A stretch of DNA of 64,000 nucleotides from positions 6,383-70,382 of the forward strand of contig CALXKK010000005.1 in the NCBI GenBank assembly GCA_944388935.1. The letters are read 5' to 3'. Below the pieces are notes generated by a model. The model saw only the letters and a program-made list of their open reading frames with translations, was not told the origin of the DNA and did no database searches. Of this stretch, positions 416 to 47,600 are shown piece after piece (position 1 is the first letter of the stretch; the number at the start of each line of letters is the position of its first letter). The stretch comes from an uncultured Clostridia bacterium (GTDB taxonomy: Bacteria; Bacillota; Clostridia; TANB77; CAG-508). Position numbers and translations under genes: made by a program.

Positions 416-2749
416 ATGAGTGATCTTACAAGTGATGAAAAAATAAATATACAAAAAAATTTGGAATACATAGGATTAGATTTAGAAAATATACCAGAAT
501 TTATAAGAAATTATAGACCGCTTGAATTTAGACCAATAAGAGGATTTAACGAGAATAAAAGCAGAATATATAAATATTTAAATATTAAAGATATACAAAT
601 CTATATAACTCCTAGAAATAAGATGGATTCACTTTTAAAAAAATATGAAGAATCAAACCAGTTATATGATTATTTAAAATTAGAATCAGATGATGACATA
701 GTAAGACACAGTATATTCTTAAAAATGGTAGATAAAGTGAATTTAGCAGAAGTAGAGAGAATATCCGAAGAACAAGATGTTTTAAATGAAAAGATACCAT
801 TTCAAGTAAAATATAGCGAAAATTATCTTTGGCAAATTTATTATTCAGATATAACGAAACAATATTTTATGATGGTAACATTAGAAAATGAAGAATATGA
901 GGCGTTTTTTTATTTGTTAAAAAAACAAATAGAGGCATATAAGCAAAATAAGGATATATATATTTATGTTCCAGTATGTAATACAGAATATTCTGGAGAA
1001 TTATTAACAAGAAATGAGATTACAGATACAGAAAATTATTTATGGTTATTTACAAAAGACTGGCCATTCATTTATGAAGTATACGATAAAGATGGTATTA
1101 TGAGTTTATACATTATAGGAAATACGATTTGTTATGAGAAGATAATTAGCAATTACAGAATTGTAATAAGAACAGAGGAAGAAGCGGTTAAATTTTTTAA
1201 ATTAATAAAAGCACTATTCATATTACAAACCGAAACTAATGGAAAATATACTTTTAAACCTCTAATAAAACAGGACGGAAGTTTAGAGTTTTTATATGAT
1301 GGAAATATAATAGAATACGATAATCTTACTAGTTTTATAAAAACAGAATTTTATAAAATTGATAATCAAATTAATGATATTGTTGAAAATTTAAATAAAT
1401 GTCAAAAACAAAAACAAGAACTATCAATAGAAGAGAAAAATAAAGTAAAAGAATTTCAAAACAAAGAAAAGGCGATATCAGTTTATTTGGATTGCAAACG
1501 TAGTTTCTTTGGAAAAATAAAATTCTTTATGCAAAATAAGAAAAAGCTAAAAGGAAAAGCAAAGGAAGTTCTAAATAAGGAGAGTAAAGAAGAAGAGAAA
1601 GACGAAGTAAAAGAAATATTAAAAGAAAATGATGGAATAGATAGAACAAAAGAATTCTTGACAATAGAGGATTTAGTTTTGCTAGTTAAAGCATTCGAGA
1701 ATCAAGATAAAAAACTAAAAAATGATGAGATGGATGTACGAGCATTAGAAAATAAAATAAAGGTTTTAGATAGCAAGATAAAGAATGCAGATATATATTT
1801 AAAAGAAATAGATGAACATAATAAGAGTATTTTTGATTTCTGGAAATTTACAAATAAAGATAATAATTTAATTTTATCAGAAGGTGAAGCAGACGAAGAA
1901 GTAGTTGTTACTAAACTAGAAAAAACATTTGACTATTTAGAAGATTTAGAAGATGTTGGTAAAGATATGGATAAAATTATCAGAAAGAAAATATCTAAGA
2001 AAGAATGTGACAGTATATTTTTAGCAACTACCGAAATTTTAAAATTTATAAATGAAGTAAAAAATAATAGTGAACCAGATGATTCAAAAATGAAATTATT
2101 AGAAGAAGAATTAAATTCTATAAAAGAAAAAACAACAATAGTAAGTTCTTTATTTCCAAAAGAGGAATATGATATATTTGGAGGTCTATCAGAGGATAAA
2201 ACAAAAATTAGAGTATTGGCTGGAAGAAAGCATCGTGAGATTGAAAAAAATATGTACAGAGTAATTGATGTAAACAAAAATACATCTTTGGAAAGATTTG
2301 TAGAAAAACTAAGGAAAATTGTAGAAGACATAGAAAAGGTTTTAGACCAAATAAAAGCTCCAATGAATTTATCTTTATACATTGCAGAGAGTAATATTAA
2401 TAAAAATAATTTTGAATTATATCATATAAATCCAGAACAGGCTATAAATGATATAGAAAGTAGTAATGAAAAAATTTGTAGAATAAATATAAAAAAAGGT
2501 ATGCCACTTATATTTTTAACCAATACAATTTATTACGATAATTATAATAGAACTCTTCCAGAGGGAATGGAATTAAGTGATTTAGTTTTAATTGATAATT
2601 CTAAATTTGATTTTATAAAAAGACAAGATACATTTTTTAGAATAAACAAAAAAATTGAAAGATTTGATTATAAGAATTGTGAAATACATATAAAAGAATT
2701 TGATTTAAAGCTTAAAAAACCAAAAAAGGAGGAAAAAAGTGATAAATAG
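416..2749 (+). CDS. Large hypothetical coiled-coil protein (~777 aa) with an N-terminal internally duplicated globular region and a K/E-rich central coiled coil
   Basis: Long ORF. GGAGG RBS lies 5 nt before ATG 416 (the ORF track starts at GTG 404). There is no Walker motif and no TM segment. The motif ENYLWQIYYSD recurs as ENYLWLFTKDW, indicating internal duplication. The middle of the protein is heptad-like and K/E-rich. The 3' end overlaps the deoB start. Confidence 0.6.
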   Translation: MSDLTSDEKINIQKNLEYIGLDLENIPEFIRNYRPLEFRPIRGFNENKSRIYKYLNIKDIQIYITPRNKMDSLLKKYEESNQLYDYLKLESDDDIVRHSIFLKMVDKVNLAEVERISEEQDVLNEKIPFQVKYSENYLWQIYYSDITKQYFMMVTLENEEYEAFFYLLKKQIEAYKQNKDIYIYVPVCNTEYSGELLTRNEITDTENYLWLFTKDWPFIYEVYDKDGIMSLYIIGNTICYEKIISNYRIVIRTEEEAVKFFKLIKALFILQTETNGKYTFKPLIKQDGSLEFLYDGNIIEYDNLTSFIKTEFYKIDNQINDIVENLNKCQKQKQELSIEEKNKVKEFQNKEKAISVYLDCKRSFFGKIKFFMQNKKKLKGKAKEVLNKESKEEEKDEVKEILKENDGIDRTKEFLTIEDLVLLVKAFENQDKKLKNDEMDVRALENKIKVLDSKIKNADIYLKEIDEHNKSIFDFWKFTNKDNNLILSEGEADEEVVVTKLEKTFDYLEDLEDVGKDMDKIIRKKISKKECDSIFLATTEILKFINEVKNNSEPDDSKMKLLEEELNSIKEKTTIVSSLFPKEEYDIFGGLSEDKTKIRVLAGRKHREIEKNMYRVIDVNKNTSLERFVEKLRKIVEDIEKVLDQIKAPMNLSLYIAESNINKNNFELYHINPEQAINDIESSNEKICRINIKKGMPLIFLTNTIYYDNYNRTLPEGMELSDLVLIDNSKFDFIKRQDTFFRINKKIERFDYKNCEIHIKEFDLKLKKPKKEEKSDK

Positions 2750-3917
2750 AGCAATTATAATTGTTTTAGATAGTTTTGGCGTAGGGGAGTTGCCAGATGC
2801 AGATAAATATGGTGATGTAGGTGCTAATACTTTAGGACATATTTATGAATTAGCTAAACCAAAATTAAATAATATGAAAAAATTAGGTTTATATAATATT
2901 GATGGATTAACAATACCAGAAAAAGAGGAAAATCCTATTGGTTGTTACGGAAAAGCTGCAGAAAAATGTGCAGGAAAAAACAGCCCGGTTGGGCATTGGG
3001 AAATTTGTGGTTTTGTAAAGGAAGAGCCTTTTAAAACATATCCTAATGGATTTCCAGAAAAAATGATAGAAGAATTTAAAGAAAAGACAGGACTTAAAGG
3101 AACTTTATATAATGGAGTTGGTTCTGGAACAGAATTATTGAAGCAATATGGAGAAGAACATTTAAGAACGGGTTATCCTATAATATATACTTCAGCAGAT
3201 AGCGTTTTTCAAATTGCAGCACACGAGGATATAATTCCTGTAGACAGATTATACGAGATATGCAAAATTGCAAGAAAGATGCTAAGTAGTAAAGAGTACG
3301 ATGTAGGAACAGTTATAGCAAGACCTTTTGTAGGTGATAGAGCTGATAATTTTACACGAACATATAATAGAAAGGATTTTGAATCACCAGAGTTTGGAAG
3401 AACAATGCTAGATGTATTACACGAAAATAATAATGAAGTTGTAGCAATAGGAAAAATACAAGATTTATTTTCTGGAAGAGGTATAACTAAAGCAATTCAT
3501 ACAGAGGGAAATGCTGATGGAATAGAAAAAACAATAGAGGAGATAAAGAATAATCAATCTGCAAAATTAATTTTTACAAATTTAGTAGATTTCGATATGC
3601 TATATGGACACAGAAATAATGTAGAAGGATATGCAAAAGCACTAGAATATTTTGACAACAAATTGCCAGAAATAATTGAAAATTTGAACGAAGATGATTT
3701 ACTTATTATTACAGCAGACCATGGAAATGATCCTTCAACACCAAGTACTGACCATGACAGAGAATATATACCAATTTTAATGTATGGAAAAAATATTAAA
3801 AGTGGAGTTAATATAGGAGTAAGAGACACATATGCGGATATTTCTGCAACAGTTTTAGATATATTTGGATATAAAAAATTGGAGTATGGCAATAGTTTTA
3901 AGGATTTAATAATGTAA
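2739..3917 (+). CDS. deoB: Phosphopentomutase
   Basis: MINRAIIIVLDSFGVGELPDADKYGD...ITADHGNDP. AAGGAGG RBS 6 nt before GTG 2739. Length of 392 aa is typical for DeoB. Confidence 0.9.
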   Translation: MINRAIIIVLDSFGVGELPDADKYGDVGANTLGHIYELAKPKLNNMKKLGLYNIDGLTIPEKEENPIGCYGKAAEKCAGKNSPVGHWEICGFVKEEPFKTYPNGFPEKMIEEFKEKTGLKGTLYNGVGSGTELLKQYGEEHLRTGYPIIYTSADSVFQIAAHEDIIPVDRLYEICKIARKMLSSKEYDVGTVIARPFVGDRADNFTRTYNRKDFESPEFGRTMLDVLHENNNEVVAIGKIQDLFSGRGITKAIHTEGNADGIEKTIEEIKNNQSAKLIFTNLVDFDMLYGHRNNVEGYAKALEYFDNKLPEIIENLNEDDLLIITADHGNDPSTPSTDHDREYIPILMYGKNIKSGVNIGVRDTYADISATVLDIFGYKKLEYGNSFKDLIM

Positions 3918-3939
3918 TAAATAAAAGGGGAGGAAATAA

Positions 3940-5874
3940 ATGGAAAATTCAGAAGAAAAACAAACTAAACAAGAAGATAATAAAACAACAAAGAGTACTC
4001 AAGAATGGACTCAAGAACCAAAAAAAGAAAATAGAAAGAAAACAAGTAAGAAAAAAATAATAATTATTATAGCGATTATTATAGTATTATTAGCTGGAAT
4101 AGCAGCGGGTGTTTGGTTTTATTTATCTAATAAAGAAGATAATGAAACTCTAGATTGGGGAAAAGTATATTTAGAAGTATTAAATGATACAGATAAATTA
4201 GAAGATATGAACAATCAAAAAATACAAATTTGTGATTTGGAAAAAGACTCTATACCAGAATTAACAATATATGGAAATAAAGATGATAATGAATATATAG
4301 CCAATATATATAAAATAAATGACAATAACGAAGTGGATACAATAAGAGTATCTTTGGATAATGAATTTGATTTGAATTTAATTTATGATTCAAATAAAGA
4401 TGATTATGTTTGGTATGCAGTTTCTGAGCAAGAAGACAATACTACGAAAATATATAATTTAAATTTTGAAAATAGTCAATATACACCAGAAGAAGTAACT
4501 CTAAATTTAGGAGTAGATAGCATAAAAGTGGATAATGATTATAGCGAAAAAATAGATTTTGACAAAAATTCTTCTGAAGATGCAAAAAAAGAAATATTAG
4601 ACCAAGCTATAGATAAATATGTTCCTGTTGAAAATATGATAACAGACGAAGTAAGAGAGAAAGTTGAGGATATAAAATTATTAAAGAACATTAAAAAAAT
4701 AGATCCAAGTAAGGATATTGTATATACAGTAGAGGAATATAAATCAACAACGAATGGAGATAATTATAAATATCCAGCTATCAATATTGATGCAGATAAT
4801 GTAAAACAAATCAATTCCGAAATAGAAAATTTATATGGATTTAAAGCATCAGATTATAGTACTAATGGCTTTATTCTATCACCAGAAACAGAAGAAAGCG
4901 GATATAAGTATTATATAAATGGACATATATTATCTTTAGTAGTATATAATGGTGGAAATGATAGTGTATGGTCTACAGCATATAATATTAATTTACAAGA
5001 TTATTCAACAATTAACAGTGATGTGCTTTTGCAAGAAAAAGGATTAAACAAAGATGAAGTTATTGCAAAAGCTTATGAATCCGCAGAAAAGAAAATGCAA
5101 GAAGTAATAGAAAATGATAAAACAGCTGTAGGTAGCTATTGGGATACAATGTATCCAGTATCAGAAACTTCAACCTGGGAAGCTGAAATGAAAGATAGTA
5201 TAGATAAATTAGCAAATGTTTATTTAAATGAAAATGGAGATTTTTGTATTCTTGCTGACTTAGAACATGCTGGTGGACAATATTCTTGTAACAAAAACAT
5301 TATAATAAATGTTAGCGATAATTATTCTGTAGAAGAGTTATTATTAGATGTATGGAATGGTGAGGAGCAAAATTTATCTCCTATACCACAACAAACAACA
5401 GAAACAACAGAGACAACTGGAACGACAGAAGCCACAAGCCAAAGTTCTAGTACAAATAGTAATATTAAAGGGATAATAGGTCTAGACCAGATGAAAACAT
5501 TTACATATGAACCAAGCTATAATGTACCATTGGAAGAAGGAACATATACTGGACCAATGGGAACATTGAAAATAACAAATTCAACAGGAAATACATTTGA
5601 TTTTGAATTTGCTTGTGAAAAACAAACATCTGCAGGATATGGACCAAATTTAGGCAGTATGCAAGGAACAGCAAAAGCAATAACAGGCAATGGGAATTTT
5701 GTATTTTCAGAAGAAAAAACAGTAGGTTCATATTCATATAAATATAATGTATTTTTCTATACATATGGAAATAGCATTACAGTTTATGATGAATGCTACG
5801 ATAATATTACAGGAAAAACAGATAGTCCATATTGTGGAAATGGAGTAATGTTCTCAGGAACATATACAAAATAA
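3940..5874 (+). CDS. Hypothetical membrane-anchored extracytoplasmic protein (644 aa) with a Thr-rich linker and a Cys-containing C-terminal module
   Basis: Strong RBS AAAGGGGAGG. Charged N-terminus, then a TM helix (IIIIIAIIIVLLAGIAAGVWFYL). Linker TTETTETTGTTEATSQSSSTNSN. C-terminal ~150 aa contain Cys residues (CEKQ...ECYDN...PYCGNG). The gene is followed by a long inverted-repeat terminator. Confidence 0.6.
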   Translation: MENSEEKQTKQEDNKTTKSTQEWTQEPKKENRKKTSKKKIIIIIAIIIVLLAGIAAGVWFYLSNKEDNETLDWGKVYLEVLNDTDKLEDMNNQKIQICDLEKDSIPELTIYGNKDDNEYIANIYKINDNNEVDTIRVSLDNEFDLNLIYDSNKDDYVWYAVSEQEDNTTKIYNLNFENSQYTPEEVTLNLGVDSIKVDNDYSEKIDFDKNSSEDAKKEILDQAIDKYVPVENMITDEVREKVEDIKLLKNIKKIDPSKDIVYTVEEYKSTTNGDNYKYPAINIDADNVKQINSEIENLYGFKASDYSTNGFILSPETEESGYKYYINGHILSLVVYNGGNDSVWSTAYNINLQDYSTINSDVLLQEKGLNKDEVIAKAYESAEKKMQEVIENDKTAVGSYWDTMYPVSETSTWEAEMKDSIDKLANVYLNENGDFCILADLEHAGGQYSCNKNIIINVSDNYSVEELLLDVWNGEEQNLSPIPQQTTETTETTGTTEATSQSSSTNSNIKGIIGLDQMKTFTYEPSYNVPLEEGTYTGPMGTLKITNSTGNTFDFEFACEKQTSAGYGPNLGSMQGTAKAITGNGNFVFSEEKTVGSYSYKYNVFFYTYGNSITVYDECYDNITGKTDSPYCGNGVMFSGTYTK

Positions 5875-5932: not shown

Positions 5933-6015
5933 GCCGATGTGGCGGAATTGGCAGACGCACCAGACTCAAAATCTGGCGGGAAACCATGTGGGTTCGAGTC
6001 CCACCATCGGTACCA
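5933..6015 (+). tRNA. tRNA-Leu, anticodon CAA, class II with long variable arm and encoded CCA
   Basis: Acceptor stem GCCGATG/CATCGGT. Anticodon stem CCAGA/TCTGG with loop CTCAAAA. T-arm GTGGG-TTCGAGT-CCCAC. Long variable arm and 3' CCA present. Confidence 0.85.
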
Positions 6016-6053
6016 ATGAAAGCATGACGAAGTCATGCTATTTTTTTGTATAT

Positions 6054-6097
6054 AAAACAAAACCACGCTACTTGAAATGAGCGTGGTTTTGTTGTTT
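6054..6097. terminator. Bidirectional intrinsic terminator between tRNA-Leu (+) and the minus-strand small gene
   Basis: AAAACCACGC-loop-GCGTGGTTTT, flanked by A-run and T-run on both sides. Confidence 0.65.
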
Positions 6098-6098
6098 T

Positions 6099-6125
6099 AA
6101 GAAGAGATTAGACTCCCTTCGGTAT
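6099..6125 (-). repeat. Conserved motif copy 1 (plus strand AAGAAGAGATTAGACTCCCTTCGGTA; an SD-like small hairpin on the minus-strand transcript)
   Basis: One of three related about 25-nt motifs (6099, 6577, 7089). Each is placed at the 3' or 5' end of the GC-rich minus-strand genes. Confidence 0.5.
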
Positions 6126-6145
6126 GGAACTACAAGAATACAAAG

Positions 6146-6406
6146 TTAGTAGCCAAGCCCCCAAAGCCGCTTATACATTGTGTATGGATCCACGCCACAG
6201 TAAATTGCATAAATATTAACTGTGGTGACGTTTCCACTATCATAATGTACATACATGTTCAAAAAATCTAACAGGAGTGACCACCGCCATTCTGGAGGCC
6301 AATATGGTAAATAATCCATGAGCAAATTGGTAATGTCCTTTGGCAGAAGTGCACAAATGGCTCTAACAACTTCGAAAAAATTGCGTTCCTTCTTGGATTG
6401 AGACAT
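6146..6406 (-). CDS. Hypothetical small Trp-rich protein (86 aa) in the GC-rich island
   Basis: GGAAGGAG RBS 7 nt upstream of ATG (rc of 6404-6406). Own consensus promoter TTGACA-17-TATAAT (minus strand, about 6444-6472). Codon third positions are GC-rich, unlike the host. No recognisable family. Confidence 0.45.
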   Translation of the reverse strand: MSQSKKERNFFEVVRAICALLPKDITNLLMDYLPYWPPEWRWSLLLDFLNMYVHYDSGNVTTVNIYAIYCGVDPYTMYKRLWGLGY

Positions 6407-6443
6407 GTTTCTCCTTCCATATATGCTGTGCTTAAACAAAGAT

Positions 6444-6472
6444 ATTATACAACCATAATTAAGTTATGTCAA
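6444..6472 (-). promoter_or_regulatory. Consensus sigma-A-type promoter (TTGACA-17 nt-TATAAT) for the 86-aa island gene
   Basis: rc of 6467-6472 is TTGACA and rc of 6444-6449 is TATAAT, with exactly 17 nt between them. Confidence 0.55.
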
Positions 6473-6533
6473 CGGATAGTGCTTGGAGTTATGGATTAAT
6501 ATTGAAGATAAAAAAATAAGATTAAAAAAATCG

Positions 6534-6569
6534 AAACAACCACACCCTTTTTATGGGGTGTGGTTGTTT
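6534..6569. terminator. Hairpin terminator between the two island genes, related in sequence to the 6054-6097 terminator
   Basis: AAACAACCACACCC-TTTTTAT-GGGGTGTGGTTGTTT. Shares the core AAAC(A)AACCAC...GTGGTTGTT with the tRNA-side terminator. Confidence 0.55.
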
Positions 6570-6576
6570 CGTAACA

Positions 6577-6602
6577 AGAAGAGATGAGTCTCCTTTCTAC
6601 TG
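6577..6602 (-). repeat. Conserved motif copy 2 (plus strand AAGAAGAGATGAGTCTCCTTTCTACT)
   Basis: Immediately 3' of the 119-aa gene stop. Forms an AGGAGA-cuca-UCUCUU hairpin in the minus-sense transcript. Confidence 0.5.
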
Positions 6603-6956
6603 ACAGAGATTGGCAACAATCTTCTGGTTCATGAAAGATGCCTTCCTCAGTTCTGCCGACGCCTTGATGGCATCTGCCATGTCTTTTTTGAAGTTGGCAC
6701 GAATGCTGTTGGTTGGCCTTCTGCACAGAAGTGAATAGATGCTAACCGCAACATCATTTGTGCTGTCCTGTGGGACAAACTTGTTGATGAAAAGAGACAA
6801 AGCGAAGAAGTCATCATCTCTCTGATTGACTTCAGGAGCTGAATAGAACTTGAGGTTGCTTTGGCATGGTGCGAATTGGAACTTGTTTTCCTCTGCCATT
6901 TTCATAATAGCATCGAGTACGTCCCCGACTTTGCGAGGATCTGCGGAACGAGACAT
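6597..6956 (-). CDS. Hypothetical protein (119 aa) in the GC-rich island
   Basis: RBS GGAGGAAGAG before ATG. GC-rich third positions. Likely promoter TTACAA-16-TATAAT at about 7135-7162 (minus strand). No recognisable family. Confidence 0.45.
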   Translation of the reverse strand: MSRSADPRKVGDVLDAIMKMAEENKFQFAPCQSNLKFYSAPEVNQRDDDFFALSLFINKFVPQDSTNDVAVSIYSLLCRRPTNSIRANFKKDMADAIKASAELRKASFMNQKIVANLCQ

Positions 6957-7088
6957 AACTCTTCCTCCATTTCAAGTTTGAAACGATTGTTTTACCGTAC
7001 CCTGGCAATAGCCAAAGGCATCTTTGCCAGTAAAGGTGAAGCGACTTGCTGGTTGTTAGATTATGTTGTAGCTAGTTGTTTACTCACT

Positions 7089-7109
7089 AAGAAGCTCTCC
7101 TTTCGGTAT
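7089..7109 (-). repeat. Conserved motif copy 3 (plus strand AAGAAGCTCTCCTTTCGGTAT), at the 5' end of the 119-aa gene transcript
   Basis: Shares CTCC(C/T)TTCGGTAT with copy 1 and the GTTGTTT...AAGAAG context with copies 1 and 2. Confidence 0.45.
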
Positions 7110-7266
7110 TTGTACTGTTGATTGAATCACTTATTATTATAACATATTATGTATAATTTGTAAATTTTAGCACAATAAAATTATACAAAAACAATAAATA
7201 ATTATTGACAAACGATAACAAAAGAAATAAAATATCTTCATAAAATATTTATGGAGGTATTTTATT

Positions 7267-8712
7267 ATGCAAAAAATAAATATATTTTTAGGGGCAATAT
7301 TATTAAGTATATGGAGTGTAGTATTATTTTTTGGTAAACAAATAGGATTGTCAATGTTATTATTTGTAATACCTATAACTTATTATATATTGCTTATATT
7401 AGAAAGAACGAATAAAGTAAAAAATGAAAAAGCCAAATTATTGATAGTACCAATAATTATACTTTCTGGAACATATTTAATATTTAATAATAGCTTTTTT
7501 AATGTACTTAATTTATTAGTAATTCCAATTTTATTAATTATTATGATATTAAATTTAATTAATACTAAATTAATTCCGAGAACTTTAGTAGAAAGAATTT
7601 TGGATATAGTTATAGAACCTTTTGCCTTTATAGGCGAAACAATGCAAGAATTTAAAAATACTATTGTAGAAAAATTAAATATAAAACATGAAGATGGCGA
7701 AAATAAAAAGGTAAAGAATATTTTTAAAGCAATATGCATTACATTACCACTAGTTATAATAATAATTACTATCCTAGCATCAGCAGATTCAATTTTTAGT
7801 AGTATGATTTCTAATATATTCAGTTCTATTTTTAGATTATTAGGAAAATTAAATTTATCTGGAATTGTTATAAGAATTATTGTAATAATATGTGTATTTA
7901 TATATTTATCAAGTTTCTTTTACAATATAATAAGAAATGAAGATGATTTCGAAGAAGAAGAAAAAGAAACTAAAAAAATAGAAGATACTACCTTAAAAAT
8001 GATTTTAACAGCTTTAAATATTGTTTATTTTGTATTTTGCATTATTCAGATTAATTCTTTATTTATGCAAAAAGCAATTATAAATTATGCAGATTATGCA
8101 AGACAAGGATTTTTCCAATTAATGATAGTATCTATAATAAATTTAATAATGATATTGGTTTCAAAAAAATATAGTGATAAAAAGAATAAATATATCAATT
8201 TTATGTGTATAATAATGGTAATATTTACATTTATCATAATACTATCTTCTGCAGTTAGAATGCATTTTTATGAGCAAGCATATGGATATACTTTTTTAAG
8301 ATTATTAGTATATTGTGTACTATTTACAGAGGTGCTTTTATTAATACCAACAATGCTATATATATTTAACAAACAAAAAAACTTATTAAGAAATTATTTT
8401 ATCATTATGATTGTAGTATATGCTGGAATGAATTTAATTAATTTTGATGCCATAATTGCTAACAGAAATGTGGAAAGATATATAGAAATAGGAAAAATAG
8501 ATTTAGATTATTTGGAGCAAGAAACAGGAACAGATGCAATAGATGAGATTATACAAATTTTAAAAATAGAAAATGTAGATGGACAAACAAAACAAGAAGT
8601 TGTAAACTATATTTATCAAGTTTATGCAGATTTGTCTAACGAGGATATGGACTTTAGGGATATGAATATATCTAAAATATTAGCTAAAAAAGCTATAGAG
8701 GGGATTAAATAA
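7267..8712 (+). CDS. Polytopic integral membrane protein (481 aa), unknown function (DUF4173-like)
   Basis: At least 10 hydrophobic segments. TTGACA-17-TAAAAT promoter at about 7205-7233. Translationally coupled to the next gene (ATAATG overlap). Confidence 0.6.
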   Translation: MQKINIFLGAILLSIWSVVLFFGKQIGLSMLLFVIPITYYILLILERTNKVKNEKAKLLIVPIIILSGTYLIFNNSFFNVLNLLVIPILLIIMILNLINTKLIPRTLVERILDIVIEPFAFIGETMQEFKNTIVEKLNIKHEDGENKKVKNIFKAICITLPLVIIIITILASADSIFSSMISNIFSSIFRLLGKLNLSGIVIRIIVIICVFIYLSSFFYNIIRNEDDFEEEEKETKKIEDTTLKMILTALNIVYFVFCIIQINSLFMQKAIINYADYARQGFFQLMIVSIINLIMILVSKKYSDKKNKYINFMCIIMVIFTFIIILSSAVRMHFYEQAYGYTFLRLLVYCVLFTEVLLLIPTMLYIFNKQKNLLRNYFIIMIVVYAGMNLINFDAIIANRNVERYIEIGKIDLDYLEQETGTDAIDEIIQILKIENVDGQTKQEVVNYIYQVYADLSNEDMDFRDMNISKILAKKAIEGIK

Positions 8713-11769: not shown

Positions 11770-11834
11770 GTATTGAAAAAAATATAAATTAGGGATAAAA
11801 TAACAGGGAAAAAACAGAAGAAAGGTGGATTACA

Positions 11835-12545
11835 ATGGAATTTCATGCAAATAAAGGAAAAAATGTAGAAATTGAAGTTAATGGAGAAGTATATTTAAGA
11901 CACGCAATTAAAACGAGATTTGTAAAACAAGGAGATAGTTATATAGATTTATTTAAAGAATATGTTTCACCAATATATCAAGAAGGAGATATAGTTTCTA
12001 GTAGTGAAAAAATTATAGCTCTTTGTCAAAATAGAGTATTAAAAAGAGAAGATATAAAAGTAGGATTTTGGGCAAAGTTTTTATCTAAATTTGCACATAA
12101 AACTACTGCAGGAGTTGGTGTTGGAGAGCCTATAAAAATGCAATTTGCTATTAATCAAGTTGGTCTATTAAAAGTATTATGGGCAAGTTTAGCAAGTGCT
12201 GTTACAAAATTGTTCGGTAAAAAGGGTGTATTTTATGAGATTGTAGGACAAGAAGTAAGTGGATTAGATGGTTTCTATGATCACGTATGGAAAGAATATG
12301 GAGATATAGGAATATTATTACCAGAAAATCCAACAAAAGTATGTAACGAAATACATGACAAATTAGGAATTTCTTGTATGATAGTAGATGCTAACGATTT
12401 AGGTCAAGAAGTTATTGGACATTCTGATGATATTAAATTAACAGAAGAGGAATTAAAAGGATTAATAAAAGATAACCCTACAGGACAAGGACAAGAACAA
12501 ACACCATTAATATTAATAAGAAAAAAATCAGCAAATAAAGAATAA
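11835..12545 (+). CDS. CofE-like (F420-0:gamma-glutamyl ligase family) protein
   Basis: EGDIVSSSEKIIALCQNRVL and PENPTKVCNEIHDKLGISCMIVDANDLG resemble the CofE motifs DGDVLVV.SK.VSKAEGR and PENPD...VIITDTNGR. No terminator separates it from the upstream gene pair. Confidence 0.55.
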   Translation: MEFHANKGKNVEIEVNGEVYLRHAIKTRFVKQGDSYIDLFKEYVSPIYQEGDIVSSSEKIIALCQNRVLKREDIKVGFWAKFLSKFAHKTTAGVGVGEPIKMQFAINQVGLLKVLWASLASAVTKLFGKKGVFYEIVGQEVSGLDGFYDHVWKEYGDIGILLPENPTKVCNEIHDKLGISCMIVDANDLGQEVIGHSDDIKLTEEELKGLIKDNPTGQGQEQTPLILIRKKSANKE

Positions 12546-47110: not shown

Positions 47111-47399
47111 ACATATACCTCCCTAAATAACACTCTATGAAAAGTATATGTAAAAAGGGGCTTTTCTGTGCCTGGACCATTGAAATTTAAATATTTACAC
47201 ATAATTACTATAATTTTATCATAAAATTTAAATAATTACAAATAATAAAGTTATATAAACGAATTTAAATAAATAGCATATAATTAAGTATGAACGAGAT
47301 AAACTTAAAAAAACACAAAAAATGCACAAAATTGATATTGAAATAAAATTAATTATGTGTTAATATACTTATAAATTAAATAAACGACAAACAAAAACT

Positions 47400-47600
47400 T
47401 CCCTGCATAGTGCGTGTAGACTGGAATTTTAGAACCAACAAATTTTAAAAGGGAGTCCGCCTTTAGGTGTGGCGTGCAAGCTTACACTTTAATTAGTAGT
47501 AAGAAGCCCAGGAGCATTTAACAAGACACCCACCTACGCGAGTAGGCTCTTAAAATTTCTAAACATCTTACGGCTAAGGCGGGGTAAGTTTTTTTATATG
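47400..47600 (+). ncRNA. Candidate structured non-coding RNA (GC-rich, about 45-50% GC against 28% background), family unassigned
   Basis: Local GC spike. GNRA hairpin CCTAC-GCGA-GTAGG. Long-range complement CCGCCTT (47463) / AAGGCGG (47582). Ends ...GGCGGGGTAAGTTTTTTT. No ORF with an RBS. Lies directly upstream of prmC. Confidence 0.3.

Follow-up and report, generated by a model that had tools for sequence, protein, structure and literature searches.

A GC-rich islet of two diverged, self-contained gene units beside tRNA-Leu in an uncultured gut Clostridia bacterium, probably acquired horizontally

Introduction

How two small, GC-rich genes, each with expression signals of its own, come to lie between a transfer RNA (tRNA) gene and an ordinary chromosomal gene of an AT-rich bacterium is the question raised by the locus described here. 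The locus is part of a stretch of 64,000 nucleotides (nt), hereafter called the window, from an uncultured Clostridia bacterium (GTDB lineage Bacillota; Clostridia; TANB77; CAG-508; GenBank assembly GCA_944388935.1, contig CALXKK010000005.1, positions 6,383 to 70,382 of the forward strand). An islet at window positions ~6048-7190, between tRNA-Leu(CAA) at 5933-6015 and a DUF4153 gene at 7267-8712, holds two minus-strand genes, here called P1 and P2. An earlier note, made from the letters of the window, had proposed that the block is horizontally acquired cargo, either a small cassette array or the remnant of an integrative element. The analysis reported here points to a small chromosomal islet, probably acquired horizontally, of two diverged paralogous moron-like units that fill a species-variable slot. 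The orphan protein family is new; the genomic feature itself is of a familiar kind, and there is no new recombination or cassette system.

Results

Composition of the islet

The islet has a guanine-plus-cytosine (GC) content of 41-46%, against 27.8% across the window, and is the sole stretch of the window with at least 0.40 GC over 300 nt. The jump in GC described earlier, beginning after the tRNA and lasting about 1 kb before a fall, was borne out: in 200-nt windows the GC content is 0.41-0.46 over ~6000-7100 and 0.19-0.20 past 7100. A dip to 0.33-0.35 at ~6300-6600 corresponds to the AT-rich spacer and promoter that separate the P1 and P2 units. P1 and P2, with 86 and 119 amino acids (aa), are the only open reading frames (ORFs) in the islet. 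Their GC content at third codon positions (GC3) is 0.425 and 0.542, against a mean of 0.145 (standard deviation 0.028, maximum 0.224) for the 51 ORFs of the window that are 150 aa or longer; these values exceed the host mean by about 10 and 14 standard deviations, so the contrast with the other genes of the window had been correctly seen. A comparison of codon usage, which the earlier note had suggested, showed a preference opposite to that of the host (TTC 9/12 versus 9/91; AAG 10/14 versus 24/166).

Two related, self-contained units

Each unit is complete, with a predicted sigma-70 promoter, a strong ribosome-binding site, a small ORF, a 38-nt 3' element and an intrinsic terminator. The features of the two units are as follows.

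6472..6444, minus strand: P1 promoter TTGACA-17-TATAAT, 12/12 consensus, TG two bases upstream of the -10 box
6418-6411, minus strand: P1 ribosome-binding site GGAAGGAG, 4 nt upstream of the ATG, read from the sequence
6146..6406, minus strand: P1 gene, 86 aa from the ATG, GC 0.40, GC3 0.425
6083..6120, minus strand: P1 38-nt 3' element GAAGGGAGTCTAATCTCTTCTTAAAACAACAAAACCAC, conserved in sister-lineage P1 units
6093-6056, minus strand: P1 intrinsic terminator, ~14-bp stem, 10-nt loop, U-rich tail, -28.4 kcal/mol, fold z = -6.65
7164..7136, minus strand: P2 promoter TTTACA-17-TATAAT with TGn extension, 11/12 consensus
7110-7075, minus strand: degenerate third copy of the 3' element, ATACCGAAAGGAGAGC..TTCTTAGTGAGTAAACAAC, direct repeat D7, 12/13 with the P1 copy, regular-expression match
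6957..7129, minus strand: P2 5' untranslated leader, ~173 nt, 40% GC
6968-6963, minus strand: P2 ribosome-binding site GGAGGA, read from the sequence
6597..6956, minus strand: P2 gene, 119 aa, GC 0.46, GC3 0.542
6560..6597, minus strand: P2 38-nt 3' element GAAAGGAGACTCATCTCTTCTTGTTACGAAACAACCAC, beginning at the last base of the stop codon
6571-6532, minus strand: P2 intrinsic terminator, perfect 16-bp stem, 8-nt loop, T7 tail, -35.8 kcal/mol, fold z = -7.55

The presence of a promoter before each gene, claimed earlier, was upheld, and the P1 site matches the consensus at all 12 positions; the P2 site, previously given as TTACAA-16, had been read one base off and is TTTACA-17-TATAAT. The P1 promoter is the only perfect consensus site in the 64 kb (~0.17 expected by chance). 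Both of its hexamers are conserved in sister-lineage P1 units, and homology with those units starts there. Good ribosome-binding sites, likewise reported before, were found in both units (GGAAGGAG and GGAGGA), and that of P1 is kept at all P1 homologue loci. The same holds for a hairpin terminator in each unit (z = -6.65 and -7.55), although a simple terminator scan missed that of P1 owing to its 10-nt loop and it was found by folding.

The 3' region of each unit consists of two hairpins, one of 7 bp followed by a long GC-rich stem with a U tail, and the fold z values of these 3' regions lie between -5.7 and -7.5 in both units. In the 7-bp hairpin a Shine-Dalgarno (SD)-like GAARGGAG is predicted to pair with CUCUUCUU. 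This hairpin takes up the first 20 nt of the P1 3' element, where the SD-like stretch would pair with a CU-rich stretch, and the last bases of the element double as the 5' arm of the terminator.

The two genes are paralogues, though distant ones. Profile-profile alignment with hhalign covers 73 columns from residue 1 (29% identity, E = 3e-4), and in a BLASTP alignment residues 48-70 of P1 pair with residues 56-78 of P2, with 43% identity over 23 aa. The proteins begin with MSQS in P1 and MSRS in P2, and the translation-start regions (P2 ATGGAGGAAGAGTTATGTCTCGTTCC) are 73% identical over 26 nt (direct repeat D2). The terminators had been described as sequence-related; this relationship extends to the whole 38-nt 3' element, which aligns without gaps at 29 of 38 positions (shuffled maximum 23) and is conserved better than the P1 and P2 ORFs. 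Compensatory changes were found among the terminator stems of P1, P2 and a P1 homologue on another contig, L013. The units have in common a motif in the middle of the protein as well as their start region, 3' element and terminator; the look of duplicated cassettes described earlier therefore reflects a real, old paralogy of whole expression units.

The P2 leader showed no significant structure (fold z = -1.3) and no Rfam family, and both results argue against a riboswitch or leader RNA. Close to the predicted 5' end of the P2 transcript, the third copy of the 3' element lacks both a hairpin and a terminator and does not fold; it may have been left by an upstream unit since lost, or it may be a stabiliser of the SD-like kind. 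A STAB-SD in a 5' leader, which Agaisse and Lereclus are said to have described in 1996 (cited in PMC7509114), is reportedly an mRNA stabiliser of Gram-positive bacteria. The P2 leader carries a comparable candidate, the SD-like GAAAGGAG, about 25-30 nt from the predicted 5' end and far from start codons. A hairpin of the leader, TGGCAAAGAT, has a weak collinear similarity to the 3' untranslated region (UTR) of a cassette in the related sequence L016 (E = 0.63), too weak to build on. On the opposite strand, TGTATAATTTGTAAATTTTAGCACA at window positions 7150-7174 (plus strand), facing the DUF4153 gene, agrees at 19 of 25 positions with the P1 promoter around its -10 box and start. This similarity may be chance in AT-rich DNA or the relic of another unit.

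Coding potential and integrity of the block

The pattern of substitutions indicates that both ORFs are genuine protein-coding genes. P1 and its L013 homologue (77% aa identity) differ at 15, 6 and 27 sites in codon positions 1, 2 and 3, with a synonymous divergence (dS) of 0.81, a nonsynonymous divergence (dN) of 0.117 and dN/dS of 0.145. P1 is under purifying selection.

A second allele of P2 was found in L002. Over 522 nt, from the promoter through the leader and into the gene, it is identical to the window; its first 86 codons have 2 changes, both synonymous. The last 32 codons and the 3' UTR are about 20% diverged (dS 0.78 and dN 0.34 over these codons), and two compensating 3-nt indels keep the reading frame and the length. 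The segment L002 523-703 corresponds to window ~6735-6550, and divergence sets in again in a further patch that starts within the 5' end of P1. This alignment identifies L002 as a recombination mosaic from the same cohort, and it implies that an unsampled, more diverged copy of the whole block would exist in the population.

Ten independent contigs, drawn from at least five projects and including long-read assemblies, carry the block with 99.8-100% identity, and because of this near-identity it is not an assembly artefact or chimera. The earlier note had named a match to a known non-coding RNA as an outcome that would speak against its proposal. At the gathering thresholds of Rfam 15 the tRNA alone passes in the region and no family passes in the block, where P1 has its dN/dS of 0.145; at E values up to 1, the only Rfam matches were far-below-threshold noise overlapping the terminator hairpins.

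The slot in related species

The earlier note had also called for a comparison with the same locus in relatives. A DUF4153 query led to six related species at 72-74% aa identity, represented by metagenome-assembled genomes of uncultured Clostridium or Clostridia that include 'Clostridium sp. CAG:354'. None of the six has the block between tRNA-Leu and DUF4153, and the content of each interval differs from that of the window. The flanks of the slot in the window are the following.

5933..6015, plus strand: tRNA-Leu(CAA), found by ARAGORN and as Rfam RF00005 at 59.5 bits; the conserved left flank of the slot, outside the islet
6021..6047, plus strand: tRNA terminator hairpin and T run, found by the terminator scan; a homologous hairpin follows the tRNA in L017
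7190..7266, plus strand: conserved right flank, with the DUF4153 promoter TTGACA-17-TAAAAT at 7205-7233 and the leader, found by the promoter scan

The tRNA keeps an equal relative position in the related species, and conservation of the left flank with the sister species stops at the tRNA terminator (~6047). The right flank is near-identical in six of six. Between these ends, ~6047 and ~7190, the window holds nothing but the P1 and P2 units. The intervals in related species have the following content.

L017: a radical-SAM gene, a LysR gene and a membrane-protein gene
L015: a gene set as in L017; the contig stops before the tRNA
L018: ~1.2 kb from tRNA to DUF4153, without an ORF of at least 40 aa
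L019: a 342-aa protein
L016: the L017 set and, in a block of 49% GC, a minus-strand gene of 184 aa unrelated to P1 and P2

The 184-aa gene of L016 has its own promoter and terminator and is a precise insertion between bases that are adjacent in L017, L018 and L015. Only the promoter and first 8 codons of such a cassette are retained in L014 and L019. The P2 promoter is homologous to the cassette promoter at the same position in L016, L014 and L019; compared with L016, it is identical at 21 of 22 positions over the -10 region (TACATAATRTGTTATAATAATA) and at 83.5% over 85 nt with the flank (E = 2.7e-18). Because of this homology the fixed landmark of the slot is its DUF4153 side. These alignments indicate that the slot keeps a resident outward-facing promoter and that the cargo behind it varies by species.

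The tRNA-Leu gene has a history of its own in this group. In L016 and L017 the 3' end of the tRNA and its terminator are duplicated (L017 7077-7128 and 7242-7292; L016 5349-5398 and 5516-5565) as a direct repeat of ~50 nt, the second copy 165 bp downstream, with an inverted T-arm/acceptor 3' half between the copies. This scar looks like the attL/attR trace of a lost integrative element, or like a tiny tRNA-targeting insert. Since L016 and L017 carry this 165-bp scar with its ~50-bp tRNA-end repeats, tRNA-Leu appears to serve as an attachment site in the genus.

On the opposite side of tRNA-Leu in the window lies a 644-aa ORF (3940-5874) with an N-terminal transmembrane segment and no Pfam hit on record. 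Exactly 1.95 kb (window 3921-5867) is missing there from the same-species long-read contigs L004-L006, in which the phosphopentomutase-like gene abuts the tRNA as in the sister species. Both sides of tRNA-Leu are indel hotspots, because this 1.95 kb with its 644-aa ORF is strain-variable too.

The neighbouring genes are those of the tRNA, DUF4153, a Zip transporter, a phosphopentomutase-like enzyme and the xerD/spoIIM pair. Farther away, a gene for a transposase of the rve family (311 aa) lies in L001 and in L004-L006 (~2131-3083), between F420-ligase-like and DUF2085 genes. The site corresponds to window ~11770-11835, and the gene is absent from the window and from L003; its presence in some strains only therefore marks an insertion-sequence polymorphism. 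A 6S (SsrS) RNA gene is located at window 47397-47589 on the plus strand (Rfam RF00013, 98.3 bits).

P1 units elsewhere and an unrelated 184-residue family

Homologues of P1 with 87 aa (cluster P0005, P0128, P0129) are found in ~27%-GC genomes from the same cohorts, at a different locus. There they lie between a His_Phos_1 gene and a region of contig-dependent content (L025-L034, L013) in which genes for a ParE toxin-antitoxin pair, Bro-N, IS110 and DUF772 transposases, and MobC with a relaxase were found, and in L013 a 52%-GC SSB gene. The DNA of this hotspot is directly downstream of the terminator of the P1 homologue. The homologous gene has a GC content of 0.38 and a GC3 of 0.35 (range among the homologues 0.35-0.43), against 0.27 GC for the locus.

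Homology between the window and the P1-homologue locus begins at the -35 box and stops ~15 nt beyond the terminator. Such sharp edges alone are no proof of modular movement, because neutral flanks are unalignable at a dS of ~0.8. The different neighbours of the P1 units do show at least one relocation.

The 184-aa protein of L016 belongs to a family unrelated to P1 and P2, with more than 130 homologues and no Pfam domain. Elsewhere it also occurs as a single-gene unit with promoter, 3' hairpin and terminator, in other AT-rich hosts and at other loci. Three such units were compared.

L016, 8190-8952, minus strand: gene block of 49% GC
L035, 3900-4800: host GC 0.24, gene GC 0.52, GC3 0.63
L038, 3800-4700: host GC 0.30, gene GC 0.475, GC3 0.51

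The loops and tails of their terminators are conserved (GCTCATNTGC ... GGTTTCATTTT). AT-rich gut Clostridia may import single genes repeatedly from a GC-richer pool, or such genes may resist drift to host composition.

The proteins

The proteins had been noted to resemble no recognised family, and membership of a described family was not found: scans of P1 and P2 against Pfam, NCBIfam, PHROGs and PADLOC gave no significant match, and profile searches against PDB sequences gave no match. Among 5.8 billion clustered proteins, P2 matched three entries (itself, the L002 allele and a copy of low coverage disrupted by frameshift errors) and P1 matched two (itself and the 87-aa cluster). When P2 was compared exhaustively, by phmmer, with 1.84 billion representatives, only two more hits came up, both weak: P0006 and P0007. 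The first is a highly repetitive protein of 281 aa, and the hit was judged spurious. The second (436 aa, L020 411-1721) has a signal peptide and three internal repeats that match P2 residues 52-93 (pairwise E = 7e-7). Since this secreted protein carries three repeats, the small P2-like domain appears to exist in an extracellular, multi-copy form as well. P1, P2 and the P0007 repeats, judged by their aligned sequences, make up a previously unannotated small helical family with the shared core motif [FW][ILV]Nxx[VI]xxD[SP]xN(x4)[VI]xIY[SA].

Structure prediction with AlphaFold2 gave a five-helix bundle for P1 (mean predicted local distance difference test score, pLDDT, 79.8; predicted template modelling score, pTM, 0.68) and an unreliable model for P2 (pLDDT 45); P2 is predicted to be helical with a basic C-terminal helix. 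Transmembrane-like segments were found in neither protein. P1 and P2 are thus predicted to be small, soluble, all-helical proteins of an unannotated family almost without relatives in databases.

Because the proteins are small, soluble and helical and lack enzyme-like features, a role as binding proteins or inhibitors is the most economical guess. It is suggested only tentatively that each works on its own as an accessory factor, binding another macromolecule in the style of immunity proteins, antitoxins or anti-phage inhibitors. Class IIa bacteriocin immunity proteins have a four-helix-bundle fold and are linked to a bacteriocin locus; representatives (EntA-im 2bl7, PedB 2ip6, SPy2152 2fu2) were among the closest known systems compared. 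A type II toxin-antitoxin pair was considered and rejected: P1 and P2 are separate transcription units and mutual paralogues, and neither has a match to a toxin or antitoxin family in Pfam, NCBIfam or PADLOC.

Mobility signatures and alternative origins

The suggestion that the block is the residue of a prophage or integrative element at tRNA-Leu, with moron genes kept by selection while the integrase, attachment (att) sites and structural genes decayed, draws on several observations. The block adjoins a tRNA gene and has moron architecture and foreign GC; L016 and L017 carry the attachment-site scar at tRNA-Leu; the sister-lineage P1 homologue borders a hotspot of mobile elements; and the DNA on the other side of the tRNA is strain-variable too. 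The tRNA 3' end, however, is single-copy in the window, where searches for a second copy with 16-nt and 25-nt patterns and up to 3 mismatches returned only the tRNA itself. No integrase adjoins the block and no integrase or phage gene is among the called neighbours; the only nearby tyrosine recombinase is xerD next to spoIIM, a pair that also stands beside the locus in other contigs of the same organism. Comparison of DNA and proteins (blastn, tblastn) with 50,697 phage records, IMG/VR and PLSDB gave nothing meaningful, and scans of IMG/VR with P1, P2, the 184-aa protein and the DNA motif found none. The P2 promoter, moreover, is common to the L016 cassette at the DUF4153 end, far from the tRNA. 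The claim of a demonstrable integrative-element remnant was therefore not sustained, and an origin of this kind is considered unlikely, although not far-fetched.

P1 and P2 could also be long-standing residents of this Clostridia group in which selection, for mRNA stability or for avoidance of AU-specific endoribonucleases, keeps the GC content high, with no recent transfer behind it. The slot is without the block in six congeners, and P2 has no homologue outside the species; these facts are at odds with long residence. P1 homologues do keep a GC3 of 0.35-0.43 after a dS of 0.81, with protein divergence like that of core genes, and genes of the unrelated 184-aa family, too, form GC-rich single-gene units in AT-rich hosts (L035, L038). 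Yet the synonymous sites of P1 evolve freely (dS 0.81, dN/dS 0.145), with no obvious constraint at the nucleotide level, and repeated independent acquisition from a GC-richer pool fits the same facts. This explanation is regarded as improbable.

The earlier note had also raised a recombinase-driven cassette array. Three related elements in the same orientation (7110-7075, 6597-6560 and 6120-6083) bracket the ORFs and are better conserved than these, which would suit sites for the site-specific recombinase of an integron-like system. The hairpins, however, are terminators with perfect stems of 14-16 bp and T runs, and they have no extrahelical bases, no GTTRRRY core and no attC features. Each ORF has its own promoter; no intI-type integrase was found, and xerD lies next to spoIIM at the locus in same-organism contigs as well. 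Homology of P1 units between genomes starts at the -35 box and not at the upstream element, so that it runs from promoter to terminator and not from repeat to repeat. The motif is absent from IMG/VR, and 3'-motif scans of JGI metagenomes returned zero hits, a looser motif giving two chance hits without a hairpin. An array of this kind is very improbable and largely refuted.

That the ORFs are spurious frames over a structured non-coding RNA, or that the block is an assembly chimera, would fit the frequency of RNA genes among GC-rich patches in AT-rich genomes and the rarity of stops that lets chance ORFs arise there, but it is refuted by the substitution pattern and the independent assemblies: P1 is under purifying selection and the frame is kept across diverged alleles, strong ribosome-binding sites are correctly spaced, the P2 leader shows no significant structure, Rfam matches do not go beyond hairpin noise, and the block is identical in 10 contigs with long-read assemblies among them.

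Discussion

The block is thus best described, with fair rather than full confidence, as a small horizontally acquired chromosomal islet of two diverged paralogous moron-like units in a species-variable slot. The proposal of horizontally acquired cargo holds in part: the foreign composition and the absence of the block at this position in six species agree with it, and no att site, integrase or element is shown. The units would have arrived, and would still be exchanged, without a dedicated recombinase, either through illegitimate recombination or through homologous recombination in the conserved flanks; the mosaic L002 allele fits exchange of this kind. The signals of the units would give high, constitutive and stable expression.

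Several points weigh against the interpretation of the block as an acquired islet. No donor lineage was found, and no GC-richer homologues were present in any database searched. P1 may be old in the group and not recently acquired, because its homologues (78% aa identity) have diverged about as much as core genes (72-74%). The expression of the units is a prediction from sequence, and the mechanism of arrival is deduced from absent recombinase signatures, which is negative evidence.

The concept of the moron goes back to Juhala and Hendrix. By the published definition (Cumby et al. 2012, PMC3594210), a moron is transcribed from a promoter of its own, ends in its own terminator and differs in GC content from the genes around it. 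The two units resemble phage morons in these respects: each has a predicted promoter (12/12 in one unit, 11/12 plus a TG extension in the other) and a terminator formed by a GC-rich hairpin and a T run, and GC contents of 0.40-0.46 against 0.28 and GC3 values of 0.43 and 0.54 against 0.145 set them apart. They are also 'extra' insertions between conserved genes, each with a small accessory gene without known function. The block differs from phage morons in lying outside any recognisable phage or prophage, with a tRNA and ordinary chromosomal genes as flanks, in having no match in phage databases and in carrying two paralogous units in tandem.

With tRNA-associated islands and islets the block shares a foreign composition, a position adjoining a tRNA and a presence that varies among relatives. 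Unlike these, it is only 1.1 kb long and has neither an integrase nor a direct repeat of the tRNA 3' end, and its conserved insertion boundary is at the far, DUF4153 end.

Integron cassettes lack promoters; their attC site is an imperfect palindrome with R''/L''-L'/R' boxes and a GTTRRRY core, and the system includes intI, attI and a common promoter, Pc. We know of essentially no integrons in Firmicutes. The likeness of the block to such cassettes lies in its short ORFs, which read in one direction and each have a related inverted-repeat element behind them. The differences are that its ORFs are each equipped with a promoter, that the inverted repeats are terminators and not attC, and that IntI and attI are lacking.

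Interactions between an SD sequence and an anti-SD stretch of a 3' UTR have been described for icaR (PMC3868564) and hbs (PMC5737220). The CU-rich CUCUUCUU in the 3' UTRs of both P1 and P2 would be similarly complementary to SD-like sequences, but it is predicted to pair locally, in the 7-bp hairpin, and not with the 5' end of the transcript.

A more far-reaching interpretation is that GC-rich, self-contained mini-genes are a recurrent, distinct class of mobile expression modules in AT-rich gut Clostridia that move between hotspots without a linked recombinase. The 38-nt element or the terminator hairpin could then be a signal for capture or integration, or the high GC could be actively selected. 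Compatible with this are the pattern that P1/P2 and the 184-aa units share at several loci and the differing cargo of the DUF4153 slot behind a homologous promoter. We regard it as speculative and give it little credence.

As a small islet of two related units, the locus offers a clean small example of how uncultured, AT-rich gut Clostridia would acquire single foreign genes in a form ready for expression and retain them. Tiny, species-specific and, by prediction, strongly promoted, the units are easy to test, and a unit of this kind may serve as a natural expression cassette for AT-rich Firmicutes.

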